Shown: positions 6,237 to 56,345 of the stretch, piece by piece
How the letters are laid out: every line of letters starts with the position of its first letter
Numbering within the stretch: position 1 is the stretch's first letter
Assembly: GCA_003223135.1 (NCBI GenBank)
Contig: QHXX01000038.1
Location: 27,672-91,671 of the forward strand
Length of the DNA stretch: 64,000 nt
Source of the DNA: Acidobacteriota bacterium
GTDB lineage: Bacteria; Acidobacteriota; Polarisedimenticolia; Gp22-AA2
Direction: 5' to 3'
Program-made: the position numbers and the translations under genes
Notes under the pieces: generated by a model
What the model saw: only the letters and a program-made list of their open reading frames with translations
What the model was told of the DNA's origin: nothing
Database searches by the model: none

Positions 6237-6695
6237 ATGAACGTCGGTCCCCGCCTCCTGTGCCTGCTCCTGGCGCTGGCGACAGCGCTTCCAGTCGCGG
6301 CGGCTCCCCGCAAGGACAAACTGACCCGGGAGAAGGAGGAGAAGGGGAAGCCGAAGCTCACCCTGAAGGCCGATCCGGCCTTCGGCTTCACGCCGGTCAA
6401 TGTCACACTCACCGGCCACCTCGCGGGCGTCGATCTGCACGACCGGAACTTCTGCCACGCCGCGGTGACCTGGGTCCGAATTGACCCTGGCCAGAACGAG
6501 CGCGACAGCTTCAGGGTCCGCGAGGATCCTGCCTGCGTGCACCCGGACGAACAGATCTCGGTCGCCACGACGTTCACGAAGACGTTCGACCTGTACCGCC
6601 CGGGGTCGTACCTGATCCGGCTTGAGGTCCAGGCCAAAGACGGCACACGGGTCGTCTCGGCGTACACCCGTGTGGAGGTCCTTCGAGTCGAGTGA
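6237..6695 (+). CDS. small secreted hypothetical protein (about 152 aa, signal peptide, beta-rich)
   Basis: MNVGPRLLCLLLALATALPVAAAP signal peptide; non-artefactual composition (K/E/D/T/F/Y present); internal ATG of ORF 5838..6695. Confidence 0.5.
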   Translation: MNVGPRLLCLLLALATALPVAAAPRKDKLTREKEEKGKPKLTLKADPAFGFTPVNVTLTGHLAGVDLHDRNFCHAAVTWVRIDPGQNERDSFRVREDPACVHPDEQISVATTFTKTFDLYRPGSYLIRLEVQAKDGTRVVSAYTRVEVLRVE

Positions 6696-6721
6696 GCCGG
6701 CGGACTTTCGCTGAGCCGGGC

Positions 6722-8722
6722 TCACGGCGTCTCCTCAGGCGACGGCGGCTGGCCCAGCTTCTTGAGAAGGCTGTCCCTGACCCGCTCACGCAGCTTCTCC
6801 TTGGCCTTCTCTTTGGCGGTCTGCATCTGGCCTTGGGTATCAAGCCTGAACGTTGGGCTGGCGAGGTCGCCCTTCAGCGCGAAGTGGATGACCAGCCGGC
6901 CATTGTCGGTGAGCCCTCCCAGGCGCGCATTCTTATCCACCATGCCGCGCGTCGATTCCTCCGAAAAGCGCGCGGTGACGTCCAGGTCGAGCCTGGCGTC
7001 GAGCCCGACCCATCCCTTCCCCTCGAGGTCGAGGTCGGTGGAGTGCAGCGCCAGATCGTCGGTCCTGGCCCTGCCATCCGCAATCACCAGCGATGCCTTG
7101 AGGCTCTCGAACGGCGTGCTCTCCCGACCGATGCCCTTGCCGCCGGCGAGCTCCAGGAGCGCGGCGACCTGCTTCAGGACGCTGAAGGAGGTAATCGACC
7201 CGTCCGCCAGCTCCACGGCGCCGGTGCCGCGCGCTGTGTTGAGGATGGCGTCCATGCCCGCCCCGCTTGTGGCGAGGTCGAGGTTCCCGGCGAGTCGGCC
7301 CCGGATTAGGCCCTTCAGGGGCGGGTCGTAGGCGACGAGCAGCGGATCCACGTCGACCCCGTCCAGACGGGCCGCCAGCGCGTAGCGCGGCACGGCCCGC
7401 GAAATGTCGACGCTCGCCGATCCTTGCAGCGTCCCGCCGTAAAGAGACGTGCGCAGGTCCTTGAGCGAAAAAACGCTCTTCGCCAGCGACATCGTCGCGT
7501 TCACGTTCGACAGGTCGAACGTCTGGAAGCGGACCTGTTTGACCTCGAGACGGCCGGCGCCGCTGATCTGATCGACGATGCCGGTCGAAGCGCCGCCCGG
7601 CGCGGCCACCGCCGCTTGCGCGCCCGCCTGGGTTGCCGGCACCAGGGTGGCGATCATCTCGTTCAGGTCCAGGCGGGGCGATGTCAGCCTGAAACCGATG
7701 CGCGGCCGCATGAAGTCCTGCACTTGAAGACCGCCCTGAAGCGATGAGGACCCGGCGCGGACCTTGAAGTCCTTCCAGACGGCGCGGTCCCCATCCACCG
7801 ACAGCTCGCCCGACAAATCCTTCAACGGCAGCGCCATGCCGGCGTCCCGGTAGCTGAGGCCGTTCAGGGCGAGAGTCCCCTTGAAGCGGAGCGCCTCGGG
7901 ACGCTCGATGGGAACGTCGGCCGATCCGTCGAGGTCGATCGATCCGGCGACCTGAAGCCCGGACGGACGGGTCACGCCGAGCCACGGCAGGAGAGTCACG
8001 AAATCCTCCGCGCGGAGCCGGTGTCCCTTGGCCTGTAAGGAAAGGTGCGGTCTTTCTCCGCGCGCGTCGAGCCGCGCCTTGGCCTCCAGGATGCTGCTGC
8101 CGAGGCCCGCGGAAAGATCGAGATCGGTCGGGTTGTCCCCGCCCCAGCCGAGGATCGTCGCGTCCACGGGTGCGATGACGACCTCCGCGCGGCGGCCAGG
8201 CAGGACGGCGTCGTCGTACACGAGGACGCGGCCGGAGGTGACGCGCGCCTTGTCCACGACGACGAGGGCGCCGGCCTCGCCCGCACCCTCCGGGTGCGCC
8301 GCCGGGGCGGCCGAGGCGCGCGTGACCAGGTCGTCGAAGTTCCAGCGCCCGCGCGAATCGCGGATCAGAACCAAGGTCGGCTTGTGGAGTGCGATCGAGG
8401 TCACGCTGGCGCGGCCGCGCAGGAGACCAAGGAGACCCAGCCGCACCGACAATGACTCGGCCGACAGGGCCGTGCGATCTGGATAAGCGGCCGAGTCCGA
8501 AATCCGGATCGGCCCGCCCACCCGCAGCCCCGGCGTCGGCAGGAGGGTGAACGAGATCGTCCCCAGGCTGATCGTCCGCCCCGTGGCCTCCTGCACCCTG
8601 GCCACGATGAGCGGCCGGTAGCGGTTGACGTCCACCAGGAACGGCAGCGCGGCCGCGGCCAGGAGGACCAGACCGGCCAGAACGGCCGCGGCGACGAGCA
8701 GGCGTCGAACCACGCGGGACAC
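6722..8722 (-). CDS. AsmA-family outer-membrane assembly protein
   Basis: N-terminal anchor RVVRRLLVAAAVLAGLVLLAAAAL, AsmA N-domain (VDVNRYRPLIVARVQEATGRTISLG...), long beta-rich middle, AsmA_2-like C-terminus. GTG start with GAGGAGGGAG RBS. Confidence 0.75.
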   Translation of the reverse strand: MSRVVRRLLVAAAVLAGLVLLAAAALPFLVDVNRYRPLIVARVQEATGRTISLGTISFTLLPTPGLRVGGPIRISDSAAYPDRTALSAESLSVRLGLLGLLRGRASVTSIALHKPTLVLIRDSRGRWNFDDLVTRASAAPAAHPEGAGEAGALVVVDKARVTSGRVLVYDDAVLPGRRAEVVIAPVDATILGWGGDNPTDLDLSAGLGSSILEAKARLDARGERPHLSLQAKGHRLRAEDFVTLLPWLGVTRPSGLQVAGSIDLDGSADVPIERPEALRFKGTLALNGLSYRDAGMALPLKDLSGELSVDGDRAVWKDFKVRAGSSSLQGGLQVQDFMRPRIGFRLTSPRLDLNEMIATLVPATQAGAQAAVAAPGGASTGIVDQISGAGRLEVKQVRFQTFDLSNVNATMSLAKSVFSLKDLRTSLYGGTLQGSASVDISRAVPRYALAARLDGVDVDPLLVAYDPPLKGLIRGRLAGNLDLATSGAGMDAILNTARGTGAVELADGSITSFSVLKQVAALLELAGGKGIGRESTPFESLKASLVIADGRARTDDLALHSTDLDLEGKGWVGLDARLDLDVTARFSEESTRGMVDKNARLGGLTDNGRLVIHFALKGDLASPTFRLDTQGQMQTAKEKAKEKLRERVRDSLLKKLGQPPSPEETP

Positions 8723-16790: not shown

Positions 16791-16887
16791 GAGCCTGTCC
16801 GGGTTCCAGGAGCGGACGAATTCGCGCACCGCCGCTGTTATAATCCCGTCGGGCTTCATGGACCGACCGCGGGAGAGACGGTATTCC

Positions 16888-47747: not shown

Positions 47748-50033
47748 TTAGCGCCTTCCTGCTTCGTCGGAGATCTCGACCACAACCTTGCCGGACCCCG
47801 TGTTGCCGGCCGCGTCGGTCGAGCGCACAACGATGCTGTGTTCGCCCGGAGCCGGGCGCGGCAATGTCAGGTCGTACCTCTCGAGCGGCGAATCGTTCAG
47901 TCCGTCCGTGGGCTGGACCGACTCCCAGTCGCCCGCGTCGATGGCGTAGGCCGTGTCGCGGATGATGCTGAACGAATCGGAGGCCACGAACGCGACCTTG
48001 ACTCCGGATGGCTGCACCTGGGCCTTGATCCCCTCGATGCGGGGCGGCGTGTTGTCGACATCGAAGGGTTCCGAGATCTTCTCGGCCTGAAGCGCGCGGC
48101 CGGCAGGATTGGAGGGTGCGTCGCTCGCGACGACCCGGAACACGTAGGTCCCGTCCGGCATGGCAGTGCTGTCCCAGGTGACGAAGTCCTCGTCGATCCT
48201 GCGGCGCATCTGCTTCCACGCTGTCTCATCGGCCGCCCGGTAGTAGACGTCGTACACCAGGTCGTCGTCGTTCGGATCGCTGGCCTGCCAGGTGACGCTC
48301 CGTGCCCCGGCCTCGAAGCCGCGCCGCGACTGCGGGCGCGGGCGTCTGCGCCCACCGCTCTCGACGTCGGTCCCGGAGGGGCCGGCCGGCTTGGCCTCCT
48401 GCGTTCCGGGGGATGGCGAGCCCGGGATCTTCTGGAACGACACTCCCGGTGCCTGCACCTCGACCCGGCGGATCTCGGGCGGCAGGTTGGCCTGCAGGTA
48501 GGTGATCGCCACCTCGCGCAGAGACGGCGAGCGCTGCGGGTCCTCTGTTTTCATTTCGGCGCGCCACTGCAGGAAACGCGAGGCCGGGCAGTTCAGGAGC
48601 GCCCCGTCGGAGTTGAACGGCGCGCTCCTCCAGTCCGACCACGTCCGATCGGGCTCCTCGGTGTTGCCGCACCTCACGTTCAGGACGATCGAGGTCCCCT
48701 TCGGCGCGTCGACGCGCCAGTGGGCGCGCCCCCAGGTGGCGAACGACCGGGCGTCGAGCACGCGCGACTCGAACGCTCCCGACGGCGCGAAGCCTGTGCG
48801 CAGGAGCGACAGGCTTCCGAAGTTGCTGCCTGCGACCGCAATGTCCCCCTGTTTCGGCGGCGATGCCGAGGTCTCCCGCGTCTTCGATTCGCCGGCGTCC
48901 GCGCCCAACCGCAGAAGGGCCGTCACCTGCCCCGATGACAGGCGCGCCAGCTCGTGCACTTCGCCTTCGGCATCGAGGGAGTAGATCCGCCCCTGCGAGC
49001 TCGATCCCATGAGCAGATCCCCCGAGGACGACACGGCAAGGCTGAGAATCGCCTCCTGGCTGCCCGACCACATCTCGCGCGCGTACCCTTCAGGGGAGAT
49101 CGCCAGGACCTTTCCCTCCATCCCGATCGGGACTCGCTGCTCGGGAACGGGCTGTTGCTCCTGCGGTGGCGTCGGGGTCGGCTGGGGCGCGCCCCCGTCC
49201 GTGGGGGCAGACGGCTGGGCGGAGGCGGGCGGGGCCGGCGGAAGCGGCGCGGGCCGAGCCGCGCGCCCCGACTCACCGGCGACCGCCGCGTAGATCGTCC
49301 CGTCCCGCGCCAGCGCCAGTGAGACGACCTCGCCGAGCGGCGCATCGTACAGGACGAACCCTTCCCCTTTGGGCGAAATGCGGAAGACAAGGCCGTGGCC
49401 GTCGGTGCCCGCAATCAGGCTCCCTTTCGAGTCGAGGACGAGCGAGCGTATGTGCGTTTCGGCCGAATCGAAGAAGATGCGCCCGTGCCCCTCCGGGTCG
49501 ACCCTGAGGATTCGCCCCTCGATCCCGGTGGCCGCGTACAGCGCCCCGTCGCGGTCGAGCACGAGCGCCCAGATGTACTTCTCGCCGCTGTCGTAGGTCC
49601 AGACGGCTTTTCCGTTGGGCGCGATCTTGTAAATCTTGCCGCCCGGCGAAGACCCGGCGAAGACATTGCCCGACCGGTCGAGTGCCAGCGCGTGGACCTC
49701 GGGTTCGCCCGCCTTGAAGAAAGTCTCGGCACCCGAGCCGGTGATGCGGTAGACAGCGCCGTCGTTCCCGCCCGAGGTGTACAGCTTCCCGCCCGCGTCC
49801 TGGGCGATGGCCCAGAGGTACGGTTGTTTGGCTTCGTACACCAGGTCGAGACGCGGCGACAGCCGGAGGAGACCGTCGGCCAGAAGGGAGACGCCCTTCA
49901 GCTCCCCCTTGGCGAAATCATCCTTCTCCCTCTGGCGCCACGTCTGCGAGATGACGGCCCGGGACGAAGTGGCCTGGAACAGGAGGACGGCGAGGGCGGA
50001 CAGGACGGCGGCGATCCCGGCGGCGCGCTTCAT
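47748..50033 (-). CDS. secreted beta-propeller repeat protein (Reg_prop/PQQ-like blades) with C-terminal Ig/FN3-like domains
   Basis: Signal peptide MKRAAGIAAVLSALAVLLF; at least 6 repeats of the type DxxGxLY..T..G.VYRI; Pro-rich linker; C-terminal beta-sandwich domains; ATG overlaps S55 gene stop (ATGA). Confidence 0.6.
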   Translation of the reverse strand: MKRAAGIAAVLSALAVLLFQATSSRAVISQTWRQREKDDFAKGELKGVSLLADGLLRLSPRLDLVYEAKQPYLWAIAQDAGGKLYTSGGNDGAVYRITGSGAETFFKAGEPEVHALALDRSGNVFAGSSPGGKIYKIAPNGKAVWTYDSGEKYIWALVLDRDGALYAATGIEGRILRVDPEGHGRIFFDSAETHIRSLVLDSKGSLIAGTDGHGLVFRISPKGEGFVLYDAPLGEVVSLALARDGTIYAAVAGESGRAARPAPLPPAPPASAQPSAPTDGGAPQPTPTPPQEQQPVPEQRVPIGMEGKVLAISPEGYAREMWSGSQEAILSLAVSSSGDLLMGSSSQGRIYSLDAEGEVHELARLSSGQVTALLRLGADAGESKTRETSASPPKQGDIAVAGSNFGSLSLLRTGFAPSGAFESRVLDARSFATWGRAHWRVDAPKGTSIVLNVRCGNTEEPDRTWSDWRSAPFNSDGALLNCPASRFLQWRAEMKTEDPQRSPSLREVAITYLQANLPPEIRRVEVQAPGVSFQKIPGSPSPGTQEAKPAGPSGTDVESGGRRRPRPQSRRGFEAGARSVTWQASDPNDDDLVYDVYYRAADETAWKQMRRRIDEDFVTWDSTAMPDGTYVFRVVASDAPSNPAGRALQAEKISEPFDVDNTPPRIEGIKAQVQPSGVKVAFVASDSFSIIRDTAYAIDAGDWESVQPTDGLNDSPLERYDLTLPRPAPGEHSIVVRSTDAAGNTGSGKVVVEISDEAGRR

Positions 50034-51952
50034 TTCACCCTTATGGAGATGCGGCGGCCGCCCACGACCACGACGTCCAGATCCTTCGGGAGTTCCAGGA
50101 TTGGCGCTTCACCCATCAGGGTCGTGTCGGCGCTCAGCCGCGGATTGTTGAACACGGTGAAGATCGACAGGGGGAGATCCGGCAGAACCTCGCTGCGGAC
50201 GATCGCCGTCGGCGCCCGCCGCGTCATTCTCAGGTAGAGCGTACGGCTGCGTCTCTGGCGGCTCGCCAGGCGCACGAGGTCGCCGAGGCCTCCGGCCTGG
50301 GCCACCTGACGCTCGATCGTCCGGCGATCCAGACCGTCGATGGCCGGGCCGCTGCCGACGACGATCTCGGCGTCGCCGGGTGTGGTGTCCTCCGGAATCG
50401 TCACGACCCAGGATTCCTCCCACTCGCGACCACGGTACAGGTCGAGCACCGCGGTGACAGTGACGCTTTCGCCCGGCCGGACCTCGGTGCGCGAGGCTCG
50501 GAGCGACGAAACGACCGCGACTTGCGAGCCCTGCAGCATCTCGACACTGACGTCCACGCCGGCGATCGTCGGCTCCTCGAACCGATTGTTGTAGAGGAGA
50601 TTGAACAGGCCCCCCGCGTCATTCGCGAGCGCCACGTGGACCGGCTGCGCCGGATTGGTCCCCGAGTAGAGGTCCTCCACCGTGACCGGCGGGAACCCCC
50701 GGACATCGATGCGGTAGCGCAGCGCGAGTGTCGCGGAGGCGTCGAAGTCCGTGGTCCGCACCAGACTGTTGGCGGTCGTGACCGACAGCAGGACGGGGGA
50801 CCAGGCGCGGTTTCTCAGAATGTTGTAGTGGAAGTCGCGCCGGCCGGCGCCCGACGTCACGCGCACCGTGACCGGAATGGTCGGCGCCTCGCGACCCACC
50901 TCACCGACGATCGCCGTGAGCCCGTCCTGAAAGATGGTCCCGACAGGTGGCGTTGCGTTGGCGAGCTTGAAGGACGCGGCGGTCGACGCGAAGGTCAGGA
51001 GAACCTGCGCCTGCGTCATCGGCATTTCCATGGCGCCGGCACCGAGCAGGGGGTGGCCGAAGGCGAACACCCGGTTCCCATCGATATGAGTGAGAGTGCC
51101 GATACCGACGAAGTTCAGGTCACCGGTGGCGAGGGCCGCCCCGATCGCGGTGCCTGGCGTGAGCGGGAGCGGGCCGGATGGGGACACGACCCCTCCCCCC
51201 GCCGTGGGCTCCAGACCGCACGACTCGAAGATCGGAGCGTAATAGCGCAGGACGCCGGGGTCGCACCCCGAGCAGACGAGCGGTATGCCGATCGGCTGCA
51301 GTCCCGCCGGCGGTCCGCCGGCCGCCGCCATGGACGGTCCCTCCGCTGCCGCGCGCGGGGCGCCGCCGTCCGTTCCGGAGATCGGTCCCTCCGCGCCGGC
51401 GCGCGAAGCCAGGAAGTGACCGAGCAGATCGGGCGCCCGCGTCACGCCCTCGGCGGCCCGCGCGGGCGCCGCGAGCTTGATCATGTCGGCGATCGGGGTG
51501 ATGCCGGCGATCGCCTCCTTGGCGAACGTTCCAAGCCGATACGACACGGCGCCGACGAGCTTCCCGTCGACGTAGACCGGGCTGCCGCTCATGCCCGAGA
51601 CGACGCCGGTGTACTCGACCTTGTCCCCGCGCAGGCGGGCGATGATGAGATCCTGCTGCGGACCGATGGCGCTCTTCAGGACTCCCACGATCTCGACCTT
51701 GAACTCCTCCAGATTGTTTCCTTCGAACACCGTGCGGGCGGTCCCCTGCATCCCGGGCCGGAGTTCCTCGATCGGCATGAAGGCGACCGGTGTGCCGGAG
51801 GGCGCCGCATCCCCCGTTGCCGCAAGCGCCGGCGCCAGCGCGCCGAGAAGCGCGAAGCCCACCGCCGTTATAGCCACGAGACTCCAGGGGCGCGGACGGC
51901 CGTCGCCGCAGGTCCCGCTCGGGACCGGGGTCGCCGCCCCGGGACGGCTCAT
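50030..51952 (-). CDS. peptidase S55 (SpoIVB-like serine peptidase) with long C-terminal extension
   Basis: N-terminal TM/signal (WSLVAITAVGFALLGALAPALAA), catalytic Ser motif VVSGMSGSPVYVDGKLVGAVSY (compare SpoIVB GMSGSPI); internal ATG of ORF 50030..52132 with AAGGAAAAGGAAGAGGA RBS; ATG overlaps the upstream gene's TGA. Confidence 0.7.
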   Translation of the reverse strand: MSRPGAATPVPSGTCGDGRPRPWSLVAITAVGFALLGALAPALAATGDAAPSGTPVAFMPIEELRPGMQGTARTVFEGNNLEEFKVEIVGVLKSAIGPQQDLIIARLRGDKVEYTGVVSGMSGSPVYVDGKLVGAVSYRLGTFAKEAIAGITPIADMIKLAAPARAAEGVTRAPDLLGHFLASRAGAEGPISGTDGGAPRAAAEGPSMAAAGGPPAGLQPIGIPLVCSGCDPGVLRYYAPIFESCGLEPTAGGGVVSPSGPLPLTPGTAIGAALATGDLNFVGIGTLTHIDGNRVFAFGHPLLGAGAMEMPMTQAQVLLTFASTAASFKLANATPPVGTIFQDGLTAIVGEVGREAPTIPVTVRVTSGAGRRDFHYNILRNRAWSPVLLSVTTANSLVRTTDFDASATLALRYRIDVRGFPPVTVEDLYSGTNPAQPVHVALANDAGGLFNLLYNNRFEEPTIAGVDVSVEMLQGSQVAVVSSLRASRTEVRPGESVTVTAVLDLYRGREWEESWVVTIPEDTTPGDAEIVVGSGPAIDGLDRRTIERQVAQAGGLGDLVRLASRQRRSRTLYLRMTRRAPTAIVRSEVLPDLPLSIFTVFNNPRLSADTTLMGEAPILELPKDLDVVVVGGRRISIRVK

Positions 51953-52483
51953 TCCTCTTCCTTTTCCTTGCTGTTCTTGCCTTTGAGTGCGGCCTTCACT
52001 GACTCGACGATGTAATTCTGCATCGACGGCTTCTGGTGCTTGACCGATTCGTACACCAGGCAGGGAAGCTTGAGGGAGATCTGGACGCCATCCTCGTCCA
52101 GTGATTCCAGCCAGCGACCAAACTTGTCCCATGAGTCCCAGGTCAGCTTCCTGATCGCGCCCTTGCTGTACAGCTCGATGAGGCTGACGTCATCCTTCAG
52201 CTTGAACAGGACGGAGCGCTCATCGTAGTCCTTGAAGTCGCTGTAGGCGAAGAATTTTACTTCGCCGGCGATCTGGTCCTTGCCCTTGATGCTGATCTCG
52301 GGCGTCTTGTTGCAGCGCATCAGAATGTAGTCATCCTTCCCCTTGAAGTGGAAGGCGACGATCGGATCGGTGGTGCGGTCGTTGTCACTGGGCGTCTTCA
52401 AGGCGCGATAGACACGACGTGCGATCTGTTCGTTCGTGGTATATATCCCGCCCTCTCTGGCTACTCGTTTCATCGTCGGACCA
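51949..52483 (-). CDS. Lys/Asp/Glu-rich cytoplasmic hypothetical protein (about 177 aa), compositionally atypical, first gene of the S55-peptidase cassette
   Basis: MKRVAREGGIYTTNEQIARRVYRAL...KGKNSKEKEEE; no signal peptide; local GC about 55% versus about 70% flanks but G/C-ending codons retained; weak resemblance to tubby/LOR-type beta-barrel repeats (speculative). Confidence 0.5.
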
Positions 52484-52492
52484 ATATAGCAC

Positions 52493-52501
52493 ATTACAAC
52501 T
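52493..52501 (-). promoter_or_regulatory. extended -10 element TGcTATATT (minus strand) about 9 nt upstream of the Lys-rich gene ATG, predicting a leaderless or near-leaderless transcript
   Basis: Revcomp of 52493-52501 is TGCTATATT; the start codon is 9 nt downstream on the minus strand; embedded in the AT-richest stretch of the window. Confidence 0.4.
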
Positions 52502-52573
52502 TTGTAAATGGGCCGCTCCGCATCGACCTGTCGTCTCTTCTTTGACCTTGAAGGTTGCGTCCCTTCGCGGTAC

Positions 52574-53320
52574 ATGGATGGTCCAATGCAAAATCGAGGA
52601 ACGACCCTCTGGACGGGGCTTCTATGCGGCTTCCTCGCCGCGGGAGGCGCCGCCTCGATCCTGTCCGCGCAGACTCCGACTGCACCCACGGCAGGCGAGC
52701 CCCGCGTCAATTCCCCGGCCCTCGTCCGTGCCCTGGCCAGCATGCGACCGGACTATATGCGCTACATTTTCTCGGTCCGGCCGCTCGCACCGGGTGTTGG
52801 CCGGCGCCTCTACATGGCTCTGGTGCGACCGGGGGCGACCGACCCGGGCGGTCGCGGCAGCGCACCGTACGCCGGCCGGGGCGCCCGGAACGACATCGTG
52901 TACGACGAGGCCGCGGTCTCCTCGGGCCACAGCGTGGCCTGGAGCCGCCTGCTTCTGGACCACGAGTATTTCCACGCCCGTCACATGGCCGGCGCCACGC
53001 TTCTACCGGTGGCGCGCGGCGACTCACTGGAGGTGGAAAGGCACTACAACGAAGCGGCTGCCTGGGGGTTCAACGTGGCCGAGGCGCGCGCCGGGCAGTA
53101 CACGGGATTGCGCGAGGATGAGTTCCGAGAGGCTCTCGATCGACTGGGAGAGCACTACGCGGCCTTGCGGACGCTGCTCAAGGACGCCGACCCGAAGCGC
53201 TGGAGCCGGCTCTCGGAGCTGTTGAGCCGACCCGACCGGCTCATCGAGACCGCCGACGGACCTTCTGCAGCAGATCGTCCACGTCCTTCTGGTTTGGTTC
53301 GATCGTCAACGATTCGTTGA
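52574..53320 (+). CDS. secreted hypothetical protein
   Basis: Signal peptide MQNRGTTLWTGLLCGFLAAGGAASILSAQ (ATG at 52574 or 52586); His-containing motif LLLDHEYFHARHMAG might indicate a metal site; 3' 80 nt overlaps the convergent AP-family gene (true stop may be earlier). Confidence 0.4.
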   Translation: MDGPMQNRGTTLWTGLLCGFLAAGGAASILSAQTPTAPTAGEPRVNSPALVRALASMRPDYMRYIFSVRPLAPGVGRRLYMALVRPGATDPGGRGSAPYAGRGARNDIVYDEAAVSSGHSVAWSRLLLDHEYFHARHMAGATLLPVARGDSLEVERHYNEAAAWGFNVAEARAGQYTGLREDEFREALDRLGEHYAALRTLLKDADPKRWSRLSELLSRPDRLIETADGPSAADRPRPSGLVRSSTIR

Positions 53321-56195
53321 GGAATTGGACCGCCTTCTCGTACTGGTGCTCCTGGAGGTAGGACAGGGCCAGGGCATTGAACAACGTCGTCGTTCGTACC
53401 CCTTTGTCGCGCGCCGTCTCCAGCGCTCGGATGGCCTCGCGCGATCGGCCCATCCGTCCTTCGGCCGCGCCCAGGTTCACCCATGACTCGACGTTGTCGG
53501 GATCCTTCGCCACCGCGCGGCTCAGGATGTCCACGGCATCCTGCAGCCGTCCGTTACGCCCGTACAGGGCGCCGAGATTCGCCATCGTCGGCGCGTAGTC
53601 GGGATCGAGATCGAGCGCCCGCTTGAAGGTCTTCTCCGCCTGCGGGACATCCCGCTTCCACTCGTAGATCAAGCCCAGCCAGTTCAGGTGGACCAGCGAT
53701 TTATCGTCGAGCTCGAGTCCTTTGCGCACGATAGGCTCGAGTGTCAGGATGCGAGGCGTGTTCTTGTACAGCGTGTGCAGCTCCGCGAGCGGGTCCGAAA
53801 GGGCTGGGTCCATCTTCAAGGCCTCCAGGAGCTCGGTCTCGGCGTCCGCCATTTTCCCGTCCTTCAGAAGCAACGAGCCGAGCGCAGCCCGGATCTCCGG
53901 TACATCGGGGTGCTCGGCTCGCAGCCGCTCGAAGTAGGGAATGCCCTCGCGCGCCCTTCCAGCGTCACGGTAGATGCGGCCGAGCTTTATGTAGACGCTC
54001 TTGTCCCGGTCGGGGTCCGTCTCGATGACCGACCGCCCCACCCGGATGGCGCGGTCGTAGTCCCTCTGCGCTTCGGAGAGTTCAATCTGAAGCTGGAGCG
54101 CCGAGACGTAACCGGGCTGCTCTCTCAGGGCCTGGTCCAGGGCAGCCTGGGCCCGCGTGTAGTCCTTGGTCTTCATGAAGAGGGCCGCCTCGTTGAGATG
54201 GGCGCTGACGAGCGCCTGCGCCGGCGCATCGCCGCCCGCCTCCGCGCCGCCCGTTTCGCCTCCCTTGCCGGGCGCCGGGATATCGGCGCCCCCCCCGATA
54301 TATCCCAGTCTCTTTAGATTCTCGACCATCTCCTGGTCCACGCTGCTGGGCTCGACGATGGTCCTGTTGTCCTCCAGCCGCCGTCCGATGTCCTCATAGG
54401 AAGGAACGCTGTTCACGGCGAAGCGCTTGAGGAACCCATCGTCGATCGCCTCCTTGATGACACGGCCCGGCATGTCCCCGGCGATCGGCAGGCCGGAGAG
54501 GTAGAGGACCGTCGGAGCGACGTCGAGGAGGCTCGTCGTGTCGAGGTGTCCAGGCCTGATGCCCGGTCCGGCGATGATCAGGATGCCATAGCGCCGGTGC
54601 CAGAGGCCCGGCTTTCCCTCGATGTACGGCGGGTCGTCCTTGGGTCGGCTGCCGCCGTTCTGGAACCCGTGATCGGAGAGAACGACCACGACGGTGTCAG
54701 GTGACAACTTCGAGAGAATCTCGCCCAGGAGTCGATCCTGGTAACGGTAGTACGTTGTGACCACGTCCCTGTATTTCGAGTATTCCGCCGCCGTGACCAT
54801 GTCCATCTTCGGTGGCATGTAGTGCGCGAAGCGGTGACAGACCTCGTCGATCCCCTGGTAATAAATGGAAAACAGGTCCGGCTGTCCTCGTCCCAGGATG
54901 TCGAGGGCGATCGCCTGATACGATTTTTGACTGGCCAGGATCTTCGTCAGGTGGTTGACCGGCGCGCGGTAGGCGTTCTTCGGATCCTCTTCGACCTGCC
55001 GGCGCAACGATGCGAATTCAGCAGGCGTGACGTCCGCGAAGCGGCGAATCTCGCCGAGGCCGATCGAAGTGTCGTTCGTCAGCTTCGGGCGAATCTCTTG
55101 GAAGTAGCTCTCGGGGTAGGTCACGGCGGTACGCTCGGGTTCGCTGGATACGAATCCGAACAGGCTATACGCCGCGCGGTCCGAGACCATGAAGCCCTGG
55201 ACCGGCTCGGAGGGCCACGTCGCCCACCAGGCGATGAACGCGGACGATTTTCCCGCGTCCGTGAACATGTTCCACAGGGCCTTCACCTTGCGCCACTGGC
55301 TCGACACCGGCACGACCCGGCCGGTCTTCGCGTCCTTCGCCAGAAAGTCAATGATGCCGTGCTGCTCCGGGGGTTTTCCGGTGGCGACGCTCGTCCACAA
55401 GAGGGGCGACAGCCAGGGCATCATCGTCTTCATGTTGCCCCAGGCGCCCCGGGCCTTCAGGCGCGCCAGATTCGGGAGCTGCCCCCGCGCCATCATCGGG
55501 TCGATGATTTCCCAGTCGGCGCCGTCGAGTCCGAGGATGGCGACCTTGAGCTTCGTGTCGGCCATCCGCTCGCGCAGGGCTCGCCCGGAGATCGCCGCTA
55601 CGGTGTCCCCCGCTCCCCGGACCCGGTGGAGACTCAGGACCACCGAGGTGAACCCCTGCTCCTCCAGGCGGCCCTTCAGCTTCGCCTCGACCTCCGATGT
55701 CCCCTGCAGAAGGACAACCGACTCGGCCGAAGCGCCGCCGCCCCACTCGGCGAGGGTTGTGGATGCGGCGGTCTCCAGCGCGCCCTCGAGTGGTCGTGAA
55801 GAGCCCGTCCGAGCGAGAAACCCGGCGAGGGCGGCGGCATCCATTTGCGCCTCGACCTCGTACGGGATCTCCAGATCGATCCCCTCGCGGGTGCGCACCT
55901 GGACCGATGTCGAGACCCGAAACGGCCCCTCCGGGATCCGCAGGACCCGTTGCACGAAGGGCAGGATGAAATGACGGCCCGCTCCCAGCGGCGCGAGGTC
56001 GCGGAGGCCGGCGGTGCGCCGGAACGCCCGCTCCCCCTCGTCCACGCGCACGACCGAGAACCGCGCTAGCCCGAGGGCGGTGATGATGGAGAGCGCGGCC
56101 AGGACCAGGCGCCATCCGTGCCCGCGTTTGCCGGGGTCACCGGGCGTACGGCGGACCGCGTCGCGCCCCTCTCTCGTGCCGGATCCGGAGCTCAT
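53241..56195 (-). CDS. membrane-anchored SPFH-like domain + alkaline-phosphatase-superfamily (type I phosphodiesterase/nucleotide pyrophosphatase) + C-terminal TPR-repeat protein
   Basis: TM WRLVLAALSIITALGLA; SPFH/band-7-like segment (FSVVRVDEGERAF...FILPFVQRV...); AP-family core (LGLDGADWEIID, LSDHGF); at least 8 TPR repeats in the C-terminal 400 aa. Start ATG at 56195 preferred; an internal start at MADTKLKV (separate PDE) cannot be excluded. Confidence 0.65.
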   Translation of the reverse strand: MSSGSGTREGRDAVRRTPGDPGKRGHGWRLVLAALSIITALGLARFSVVRVDEGERAFRRTAGLRDLAPLGAGRHFILPFVQRVLRIPEGPFRVSTSVQVRTREGIDLEIPYEVEAQMDAAALAGFLARTGSSRPLEGALETAASTTLAEWGGGASAESVVLLQGTSEVEAKLKGRLEEQGFTSVVLSLHRVRGAGDTVAAISGRALRERMADTKLKVAILGLDGADWEIIDPMMARGQLPNLARLKARGAWGNMKTMMPWLSPLLWTSVATGKPPEQHGIIDFLAKDAKTGRVVPVSSQWRKVKALWNMFTDAGKSSAFIAWWATWPSEPVQGFMVSDRAAYSLFGFVSSEPERTAVTYPESYFQEIRPKLTNDTSIGLGEIRRFADVTPAEFASLRRQVEEDPKNAYRAPVNHLTKILASQKSYQAIALDILGRGQPDLFSIYYQGIDEVCHRFAHYMPPKMDMVTAAEYSKYRDVVTTYYRYQDRLLGEILSKLSPDTVVVVLSDHGFQNGGSRPKDDPPYIEGKPGLWHRRYGILIIAGPGIRPGHLDTTSLLDVAPTVLYLSGLPIAGDMPGRVIKEAIDDGFLKRFAVNSVPSYEDIGRRLEDNRTIVEPSSVDQEMVENLKRLGYIGGGADIPAPGKGGETGGAEAGGDAPAQALVSAHLNEAALFMKTKDYTRAQAALDQALREQPGYVSALQLQIELSEAQRDYDRAIRVGRSVIETDPDRDKSVYIKLGRIYRDAGRAREGIPYFERLRAEHPDVPEIRAALGSLLLKDGKMADAETELLEALKMDPALSDPLAELHTLYKNTPRILTLEPIVRKGLELDDKSLVHLNWLGLIYEWKRDVPQAEKTFKRALDLDPDYAPTMANLGALYGRNGRLQDAVDILSRAVAKDPDNVESWVNLGAAEGRMGRSREAIRALETARDKGVRTTTLFNALALSYLQEHQYEKAVQFLNESLTIEPNQKDVDDLLQKVRRRSR

Positions 56196-56345
56196 CGTGA
56201 TCTCCACGCGTGGCGCGGCAAGTGGCCACCAGGCAGGATGTTTCGAGTATAGCACCCGCTTCATCGGGCTCCCGTCGCCTGGACGTCGCCGGGTCAGGTC
56301 CGGCAATGCGCCTCCCAAGCCTTACTGAGCGATTTCCAAAGTGAA

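Follow-up and report, generated by a model that had tools for sequence, protein, structure and literature searches.

A highly conserved small protein of Polarisedimenticolia, possibly a ribbon–helix–helix-type regulator, at the head of a predicted S55 peptidase operon

In the 64,000-nt stretch of Acidobacteriota DNA analysed here (contig QHXX01000038.1, positions 27,672 to 91,671; hereafter the window), a small gene on the minus strand (51949..52473) encodes a Lys-rich protein of 174 residues. The coding sequence runs from ATG 52473–52471 to the stop codon TGA 51951–51949, with the start assigned from homologue lengths and a survey of start codons: homologues of 172–176 residues open with M(A)KR, backing this ATG. 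Translation of the minus-strand open reading frame (ORF) gives MKRVAREGG...KGKNSKEKEEE, in agreement with an initial annotation of this DNA, which had described a Lys-rich protein ending in KGKNSKEKEEE and had quoted three internal peptides, all of them present. That annotation gave the span as 51949–52483; its first coordinate stands, but 52483 is the last base of the −10 promoter element and the gene itself ends at 52473.

Two further genes follow on the minus strand, each joined to the gene before it by an ATGA overlap. At 51949..51952 the stop codon of the small gene overlaps the start codon of a gene for a 640-residue S55 (SpoIVB-type) peptidase (50030..51952; Pfam PF05580, E = 6.5e-11), which carries a hydrophobic export or anchor segment at residues 25–43. 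At 50030..50033 the stop codon of the S55 gene in turn overlaps the start of a gene for a 761-residue β-propeller/Ig-like protein (47748..50033), which is syntenic with S55 across loci. The codons for the Lys/Glu tail of the small protein, AAGGAAAAGGAAGAGGAA (51952..51969, minus strand), are purine-rich and resemble a Shine–Dalgarno (SD) sequence for the S55 start. Comparable purine-rich tails lie ahead of the S55 start in other loci, and AAGGAAAAGGAAGAGGAA could act as the SD sequence for S55.

A survey of loci carrying the small gene, with one genome taken per species, returned 85 loci, of which 80 were kept; we refer to the 25 sequences closest to that of the window as the near clade and to loci L020–L080 as the far clade. 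An in-frame NTGA overlap between the small gene and S55 is present in 33 of the 53 loci with S55 downstream, in both clades, and the remaining S55-followed loci mostly have a 1-nt overlap or gaps of 2–10 nt. Fifty loci have the gene order small gene, S55, propeller, and a further 4 have it interrupted by an inserted gene. The small gene thus appears to be the first gene of an operon, translationally coupled to S55, and the link to the S55 gene drawn in the initial annotation is borne out by the ATGA overlap here and its NTGA counterparts elsewhere. As to the distribution of the small gene relative to S55, which the same annotation had proposed as a check, the two genes are adjacent in most loci, and in 24 loci with flanks long enough to judge the small gene is retained with no S55 cassette beside it. 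On a neighbour-joining tree of the small protein these absences make up one 14-member subclade and at least 7 scattered cases, a distribution which implies that the operon is ancestral and that the cassette has been repeatedly lost or moved while the small gene was always kept.

The initial annotation had also singled out this segment as the lowest-GC part of the window, at roughly 55%. Indeed, the bin 52001–52500 has a GC content of 0.550, the minimum among the 128 bins of 500 bp in the window; the next-lowest bins are at 0.602 and 0.608, and a typical bin is at about 0.68. Codon positions 1, 2 and 3 of the small gene have GC contents (GC1, GC2 and GC3) of 0.52, 0.33 and 0.80, compared with a GC2 of 0.46–0.57 and a GC3 of 0.77–0.88 in four neighbouring genes, and Lys accounts for 12.6% of the small protein versus 0.8–4.5% in the neighbours. 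Because GC3 is host-like, GC2 is low and Lys is high, the low GC content can be ascribed to amino-acid content rather than to foreign DNA, as had been suggested from the G/C-rich third positions. In view of the host-like GC3 and of the class-wide conservation of synteny described below, an origin as foreign DNA or as part of an island was rejected. The protein itself is hydrophilic (20 kDa, isoelectric point (pI) 8.7, grand average of hydropathy −0.70), and no hydrophobic segment or signal peptide was found in it, the highest 19-residue hydropathy being 0.49. It is therefore predicted to be cytoplasmic, and S55 to be exported, so that the two products would end in separate compartments.

About 1,074 homologues of the small protein were found, all of them without annotation. 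By their titles, nearly all the surveyed loci belong to Acidobacteriota or to its class Candidatus Polarisedimenticolia, whose members are widespread in soils, sediments and groundwater and have hardly ever been grown in culture. Each contig has one copy. Among the carriers are Ca. Polarisedimenticola svalbardensis and Acidobacteria bacterium Mor1, the only isolate, whose complete genome (CP011806) lacks the cassette next to the small gene. Across these loci the small protein is 63–93% identical over its whole length, predicted loops included, while S55 and the propeller protein drop to 28–40% identity in the same loci. The window protein matched no family in Pfam or NCBIfam at E ≤ 1 and none in PADLOC, and it had no match below E = 0.1 among the PHROGs, on which ground a phage origin was rejected. 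Sequence searches of the PDB with three profiles found nothing, nor was this protein found in literature mentioning Polarisedimenticolia. The earlier remark that the protein could not be placed in a family therefore still holds. By these comparisons it is an undescribed, single-copy core family that is restricted to the class and exceptionally conserved. Seven SMAG bins (L006, L021, L022, L032, L034, L037 and L043) have the same synteny and 69–84% identity under other labels (Binatia, Cryosericum, Patescibacteria, Verrucomicrobiia, Dongiaceae and Sulfotelmatobacter); these off-lineage labels are probably errors of binning or naming.

To describe the architecture of the protein we used an AlphaFold monomer model built from a 52-sequence alignment that included distant relatives (mean predicted local-distance difference test score (pLDDT) 80.6; 78–81 over five models). 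An N-terminal domain spans residues ~11–125 (52099..52443, minus strand), and its blocks are mostly at pLDDT 87–96. It is modelled as a helix (residues 14–25), three strands (38–43, 49–53 and 59–63), a long conserved loop with the invariant sequence GEVKFFAYSDF, a short helix (88–91), two strands (96–102 and 110–112) and a final helix (115–124). Beyond it the model has an extended segment (129–134) followed by two helices (135–144 and 151–172). No fold match for the model was found in the PDB. The initial annotation had seen in the strand-like segments a faint resemblance to tubby/LURP-one-related barrels. That suggestion is not upheld: neither a match to the LOR (DUF567) or tubby profiles of Pfam nor a match to the 12-stranded barrel fold was obtained, and the idea was dropped.

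The modular nature of the protein is shown by its distant relatives. A HMMER scan of 1.84 billion cluster representatives gave 49 hits, consisting of two full-length family representatives, fragments of the family and a handful of true distant relatives, and a further search yielded 13 sequences of the distant type. In P0156 and P0189 (180 residues) and P0164 (165 residues) the N-terminal domain is followed by a recognizable C-terminal ribbon–helix–helix (RHH) module; in P0163 a response-regulator receiver domain is fused to the N-terminal domain and there is no RHH; and in about ten proteins of 112–141 residues, one of them from an Omnitrophica metagenome-assembled genome, the N-terminal domain stands alone. 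The C-terminus of P0156 and P0189 matches the Pfam families NikA-like (E = 2.4e-5), TacA1 (1e-4), RHH_1 (6e-4) and CopG_antitoxin (2e-3), as well as an Arc-like PHROG. No S55 or toxin gene was found as a neighbour of the distant relatives. The gene for the N-domain-only protein P0192 (L088, 1522–1920) has phage-like surroundings, which include genes for an S78 prohead protease, a capsid protein and an N6/N4 DNA methylase, and that for the receiver fusion P0163 (L087, 740–1570) adjoins an ACT-domain gene.

In the main family, the place at which these relatives carry their RHH is occupied by residues ~129–165 (51979..52089, minus strand), which comprise a VQISLKL strand, a helix A (PCLVYESVKHQ) and a helix B (PSMQNYIVESVKAALK). 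A strand–helix–helix unit of about 45 residues is present here in the AlphaFold monomer model, where pLDDT is 61–75. The V-Q-I-S-L-K-L-P strand alternates between polar and hydrophobic residues and hardly varies, Q131, I132, S133, K135, L136 and P137 being invariant in the alignment of the family; an alternating strand ending in Pro is also seen in Arc, Mnt and MetJ. Helix B begins with P-S-M-Q-N in the main family. Aligning the main-family C-terminus with the C-termini of P0156, P0189 and P0164 by hhalign gave a score of 19.2 (P = 8e-4); the register is that of an RHH, and helix A contains a gap of 4 residues. The scores of 60 column-shuffled controls were 8.3 ± 2.2 and reached 14.0 at most, which places the real score about 5 standard deviations above the null. 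From the alignment and the model together, we consider the C-terminus of the main family to be probably a divergent RHH, a module that the initial annotation missed, and the protein as a whole to be, as read from its sequence, a two-module protein in which the N-terminal domain is joined to a C-terminal RHH-like module.

An extended −10 element, TGCTATATT (52483..52491, minus strand), lies 9 nt before the ATG, with a spacing that is conserved in the near clade. The initial annotation had reported this element, TGcTATATT, at the right distance from the start codon and, by a slip of 10 nt, at 52493–52501. The pattern TGNTATAWT has 2 matches in the window against 0.09 expected. The 9-nt gap itself (52474..52482) contains no SD sequence, in line with the near-clade comparison. 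Because the usual distance from the −10 element to the transcription start is about 7 nt, transcription is likely to start at A 52476, leaving a leader of about 3 nt. A scanner for canonical −35/−10 promoters found none at the small gene, and a −35 hexamer at 16–18 nt is absent; the promoter is called because the extended −10 element is present and conserved. The other TGNTATAWT match, TGTTATAAT at 16836–16844 on the plus strand, precedes a pair of rmlC-like and rmlA-like genes; there is an ATG 13 nt downstream of it, but the likelier start, MIKDV (16888), has an SD sequence, and TGTTATAAT looks like an ordinary short-leader promoter.

Throughout the near clade the start codon is ATG or GTG, 10–11 codons before the invariant Tyr11. 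The motif TGnTAnnnT lies 6, 8 or 9 nt from it in 25 of 25 sequences, with the first T of the −10 hexamer 12–15 nt upstream of the start codon, and an SD-like motif is absent from all 25 loci. The combination implies that the messenger RNA is leaderless or nearly so, and in the clade of the window we take it as likely to have either no leader or one of about 3 nt; the near-leaderless start put forward in the initial annotation is thereby reinforced. An upstream ATG at 52494 (minus strand) overlaps the TG of the extended −10 element and so lies inside the promoter. Database gene calls that begin there, of 181 and 208 residues, are consequently over-extensions of the 172–176-residue protein, and we rejected calls of 181–221 residues (P0001–P0008, P0020 and others), whose upstream ATGs fall in the promoter.

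Directly upstream of the −10 element is an inverted repeat of the form TTACAA-N2-TTGTAA (TTACAAnnTTGTAA, 52494..52507), a weak candidate operator. It is unique in the window (0.02 expected), and 12 of 300 shuffles of the local region reach it. Its conservation is limited to the closest relatives, and it was dropped as an operator. Elsewhere in the divergent intergenic region, a terminator-like hairpin (GAGGGTCGTTCCTC) with a T-rich tail, at 52596–52609 on the minus strand, is probably a chance occurrence, the shuffled expectation being 0.8 such sites.

The far clade is organized differently. There the ORF opens at Met-Tyr11, with a GGAG-type SD sequence directly before it, a leader of about 40 nt and, some 40–60 nt upstream of the gene, a canonical promoter (TTGAGn, 17 nt, TATACT). 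Two extra conserved motifs accompany this promoter, CTATGyC within the spacer and CCTATTCG around +1, each at about 11 nt from the −10 element, and they could be a binding site for a regulator. Relative to the far clade, the window's clade carries ten extra N-terminal residues, and the clades seem to have exchanged leader sequence for coding sequence.

Taking these observations together, we propose, with a probability of about 0.45, that the small protein is an RHH-type regulator that heads the S55/propeller operon and probably has wider targets. In a dimer, the VQISLKL strands of the two subunits would pair as a β-ribbon, which would read the major groove of DNA through Q131, S133 and K135, and the N-terminal domain would set the activity of the protein as a module for partner binding, ligand binding or oligomerization. 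The protein would regulate transcription of its own operon. That it is so extremely conserved, and is kept where S55 is not adjacent, suggests that it has other targets as well, perhaps acting globally or as a nucleoid-associated protein. Coupling of a first-gene regulator to the gene that follows is common among RHH autorepressors, for example in CopG–RepB and in antitoxin–toxin pairs. A further-reaching version of the proposal, which we hold to be doubtful, is that the N-terminal 115 residues are a new fold that acts as a signal-output or effector module, whether alone, fused to a receiver domain or fused to an RHH, and that the RHH-fused form has become, throughout the class, an indispensable master regulator or chromatin protein whose translational coupling to S55 and the propeller is ancestral.

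Several results weigh against a regulator of this type. The window protein has no Pfam RHH match at E ≤ 1, and even among the distant relatives all Pfam RHH matches are below the gathering thresholds. Compared by hhalign with five classical RHH sequences, the main-family C-terminus aligned in the correct register at a non-significant E of 0.14, and a hidden Markov model of the C-terminus alone misses the RHH of the distant relatives. Within the module, the turn K/Q-P-S-M-Q-N has the Ser and lacks the Gly of the usual G-x-S/T, which the distant relatives retain in canonical form (T-G-L-T and G-S-S); helix A is about 4 residues shorter than in a usual RHH; and the pLDDT of the model in this part is only 61–75. 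The N-terminal domain yields no functional clue. An identity of 63–93% across the class is unusually high for a local repressor, and an operator both convincing and conserved was not found; the inverted repeat is kept in the closest relatives only.

The main rival to this proposal is that the small protein is a cytoplasmic partner of S55, made in fixed ratio to it by translational coupling, which binds protease molecules that have not been exported or have folded too early, and serves as their inhibitor, as an immunity-like protein or as an export chaperone. Of the readings considered, this comes nearest to the tie with proteolysis hinted at in the initial annotation. The staphostatins, coupled cytoplasmic inhibitors that protect the cytoplasm from the secreted staphopains, provide a precedent, and such a partner would suit the ancestral operon, the persistence of the NTGA overlap in 33 of 53 loci of both clades, including loci whose S55 is down to about 30% identity, and an N-terminal domain that is rich in β-strands and has many invariant surface residues. 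We nevertheless think it unlikely. The small gene is kept and highly conserved in the 24 loci without an adjacent S55, which implies at least 8 independent losses of the cassette; S55 has drifted to 30% identity and the small protein has kept about 70%, the opposite of what co-evolving partners do; and the distant relatives have no protease neighbour. The two proteins would end in different compartments, the RHH-like tail would be left without a role, and Pfam gives no match to BofC or to any inhibitor family. No more likely, in our view, is that the protein is an abundant architectural, nucleoid-associated protein of the lineage, strongly expressed from its leaderless promoter and binding DNA widely through the RHH and a basic N-terminal domain. 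Conservation at housekeeping level with one copy per locus across the class, retention of the gene whatever its neighbours, a Lys-rich and basic composition (pI 9.1 for the N-terminal domain and 9.4 for the RHH core) and a predicted strong promoter conserved in both clades would all accord with this. Set against them are the moderate support for the RHH assignment itself and the size of the protein, as 174 residues with a large globular N-terminal domain are unlike known small nucleoid proteins; this explanation moreover overlaps with a regulator of wide reach and is not cleanly separable from it.

Two other explanations fare worse. In one, which is very improbable, the protein would be a nucleic-acid enzyme, its N-terminal domain being a divergent PD-(D/E)xK nuclease fold tethered to DNA by the RHH. 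The predicted order of helix, three strands, helix and strand fits the PD-(D/E)xK core, in which D48 would lie before strand 2 and E59, S61 and K63 on strand 3, and D48 is invariant even in the distant relatives; 17 of 52 family members match PF24608 (PDDEXK_15) weakly, at best with E = 3.8e-4, and one N-domain-only relative is encoded in a phage-like region. The PF24608 matches, however, are all below threshold (at most 20.8 bits versus 27) and non-collinear: two different segments of the protein align to profile regions that overlap, and they do so out of order. They come from 17 closely related sequences and so are not independent, the window protein and all distant relatives lack them, and E59 and K63 are not kept in P0156. 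We rejected the nuclease on the grounds that its matches are sub-threshold, non-collinear and confined to near-identical family members. Hardly credible, finally, is an orphan HicB-type antitoxin, with an N-terminal α/β domain and a C-terminal RHH, or another gene of mobile or foreign origin, a reading that would explain the low GC content. The order of modules is alike, a globular N-terminal domain and then an RHH; one weak HicB match in Pfam (E = 0.088) was obtained among C-terminal fragments; and this is the lowest-GC region of the window. Yet GC3 is host-like, the gene is single-copy with conserved synteny across the whole class, no HicA or other small toxin gene is adjacent either here, where the neighbours are S55 and a divergent 270-residue gene, or beside the distant relatives, and PADLOC gave no match. 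Lacking a HicB fold, a toxin partner and a PADLOC match, a toxin–antitoxin system is effectively refuted.

Upstream of the small gene, the divergent gene (52508–53320, plus strand) encodes an exported-looking protein of 270 residues without a Pfam match, whose likely start is MQNRGTT at ~52586 and not the ATG at 52508. It adjoins a minus-strand gene (53241–56318) for a 1,025-residue fusion of an SPFH/Band-7 domain, a type I phosphodiesterase and TPR repeats. Both genes are syntenic in the window's clade only. The far-clade frame consists of an S8 peptidase gene (−), the small gene (+), the optional S55 (+) and propeller (+) genes, a conserved gene for a 132-residue protein (−), an optional EAL gene (−) and a GGDEF gene (−). 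The S8 gene, a divergent subtilase, stands on the upstream side, where there is also a ChaN-like gene. The protein of 132–136 residues, which has no Pfam match, is encoded convergently to the small gene, or to the cassette where that is present, at 6494–6889 (−) in L061, at 6510–6917 (−) in L072 and in about 25 other far-clade loci, and EAL and GGDEF genes come after it.

An identity of about 70% across the class, against about 30% for its neighbours, marks the small protein as having an important lineage-specific function that databases have left unnamed. Should it prove to be an RHH regulator whose sensor or effector domain is new, a domain family would be added; such a regulator would also open a route to studying how S55 (SpoIVB-type) proteases are controlled in organisms that do not form spores. 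The locus is in addition a clean comparative case, in which one orthologue is leaderless in one clade and has an SD-bearing leader in the sister clade, and it reveals that many database gene calls for the family are over-extended into the promoter.

The start of the gene can be compared with those studied by Zheng et al. (2011; PMC3160421), who used TANNNT close upstream of the start codon to predict leaderless genes. The small gene resembles such genes in having the first T of TANNNT 12–15 nt upstream, no SD sequence and an ATG or GTG start, in 25 related genomes; it differs in that the 9-nt gap in the window leads one to expect a leader of about 3 nt, with an AUG that is not strictly 5′-terminal.

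Among known proteins, tubby/LURP-one has nothing in common with the N-terminal domain beyond a richness in β-strands. The staphostatins offer a parallel, a small protein whose gene shares an operon with that of an exported protease and is coupled to it, and BofC regulates SpoIVB, the founding S55 peptidase. The small protein has no sequence or fold match to either, and its gene persists where S55 is not adjacent; BofC, further, is secreted, whereas the small protein has no signal peptide and no BofC_N or BofC_C match in Pfam. HicB shares the arrangement of a globular N-terminal domain followed by a C-terminal RHH, but its N-terminal domain is matched neither in sequence nor in fold, there is no HicA partner, and the small gene is a conserved core gene and not part of a mobile toxin–antitoxin pair. 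The closest likeness is to the RHH proteins themselves (Arc/MetJ/CopG, NikA-like and TacA-like), with which the C-terminus shares a strand–helix–helix unit of about 40 residues, a Pro after the strand and a Ser capping helix B. As with RHH autorepressors, the gene comes first in its operon and appears translationally coupled to the next. The module differs from theirs in being C-terminal, behind a 115-residue domain of unrecognized fold, and the small protein may be best described as a variant of the RHH-type regulator with an unrecognized N-terminal domain.

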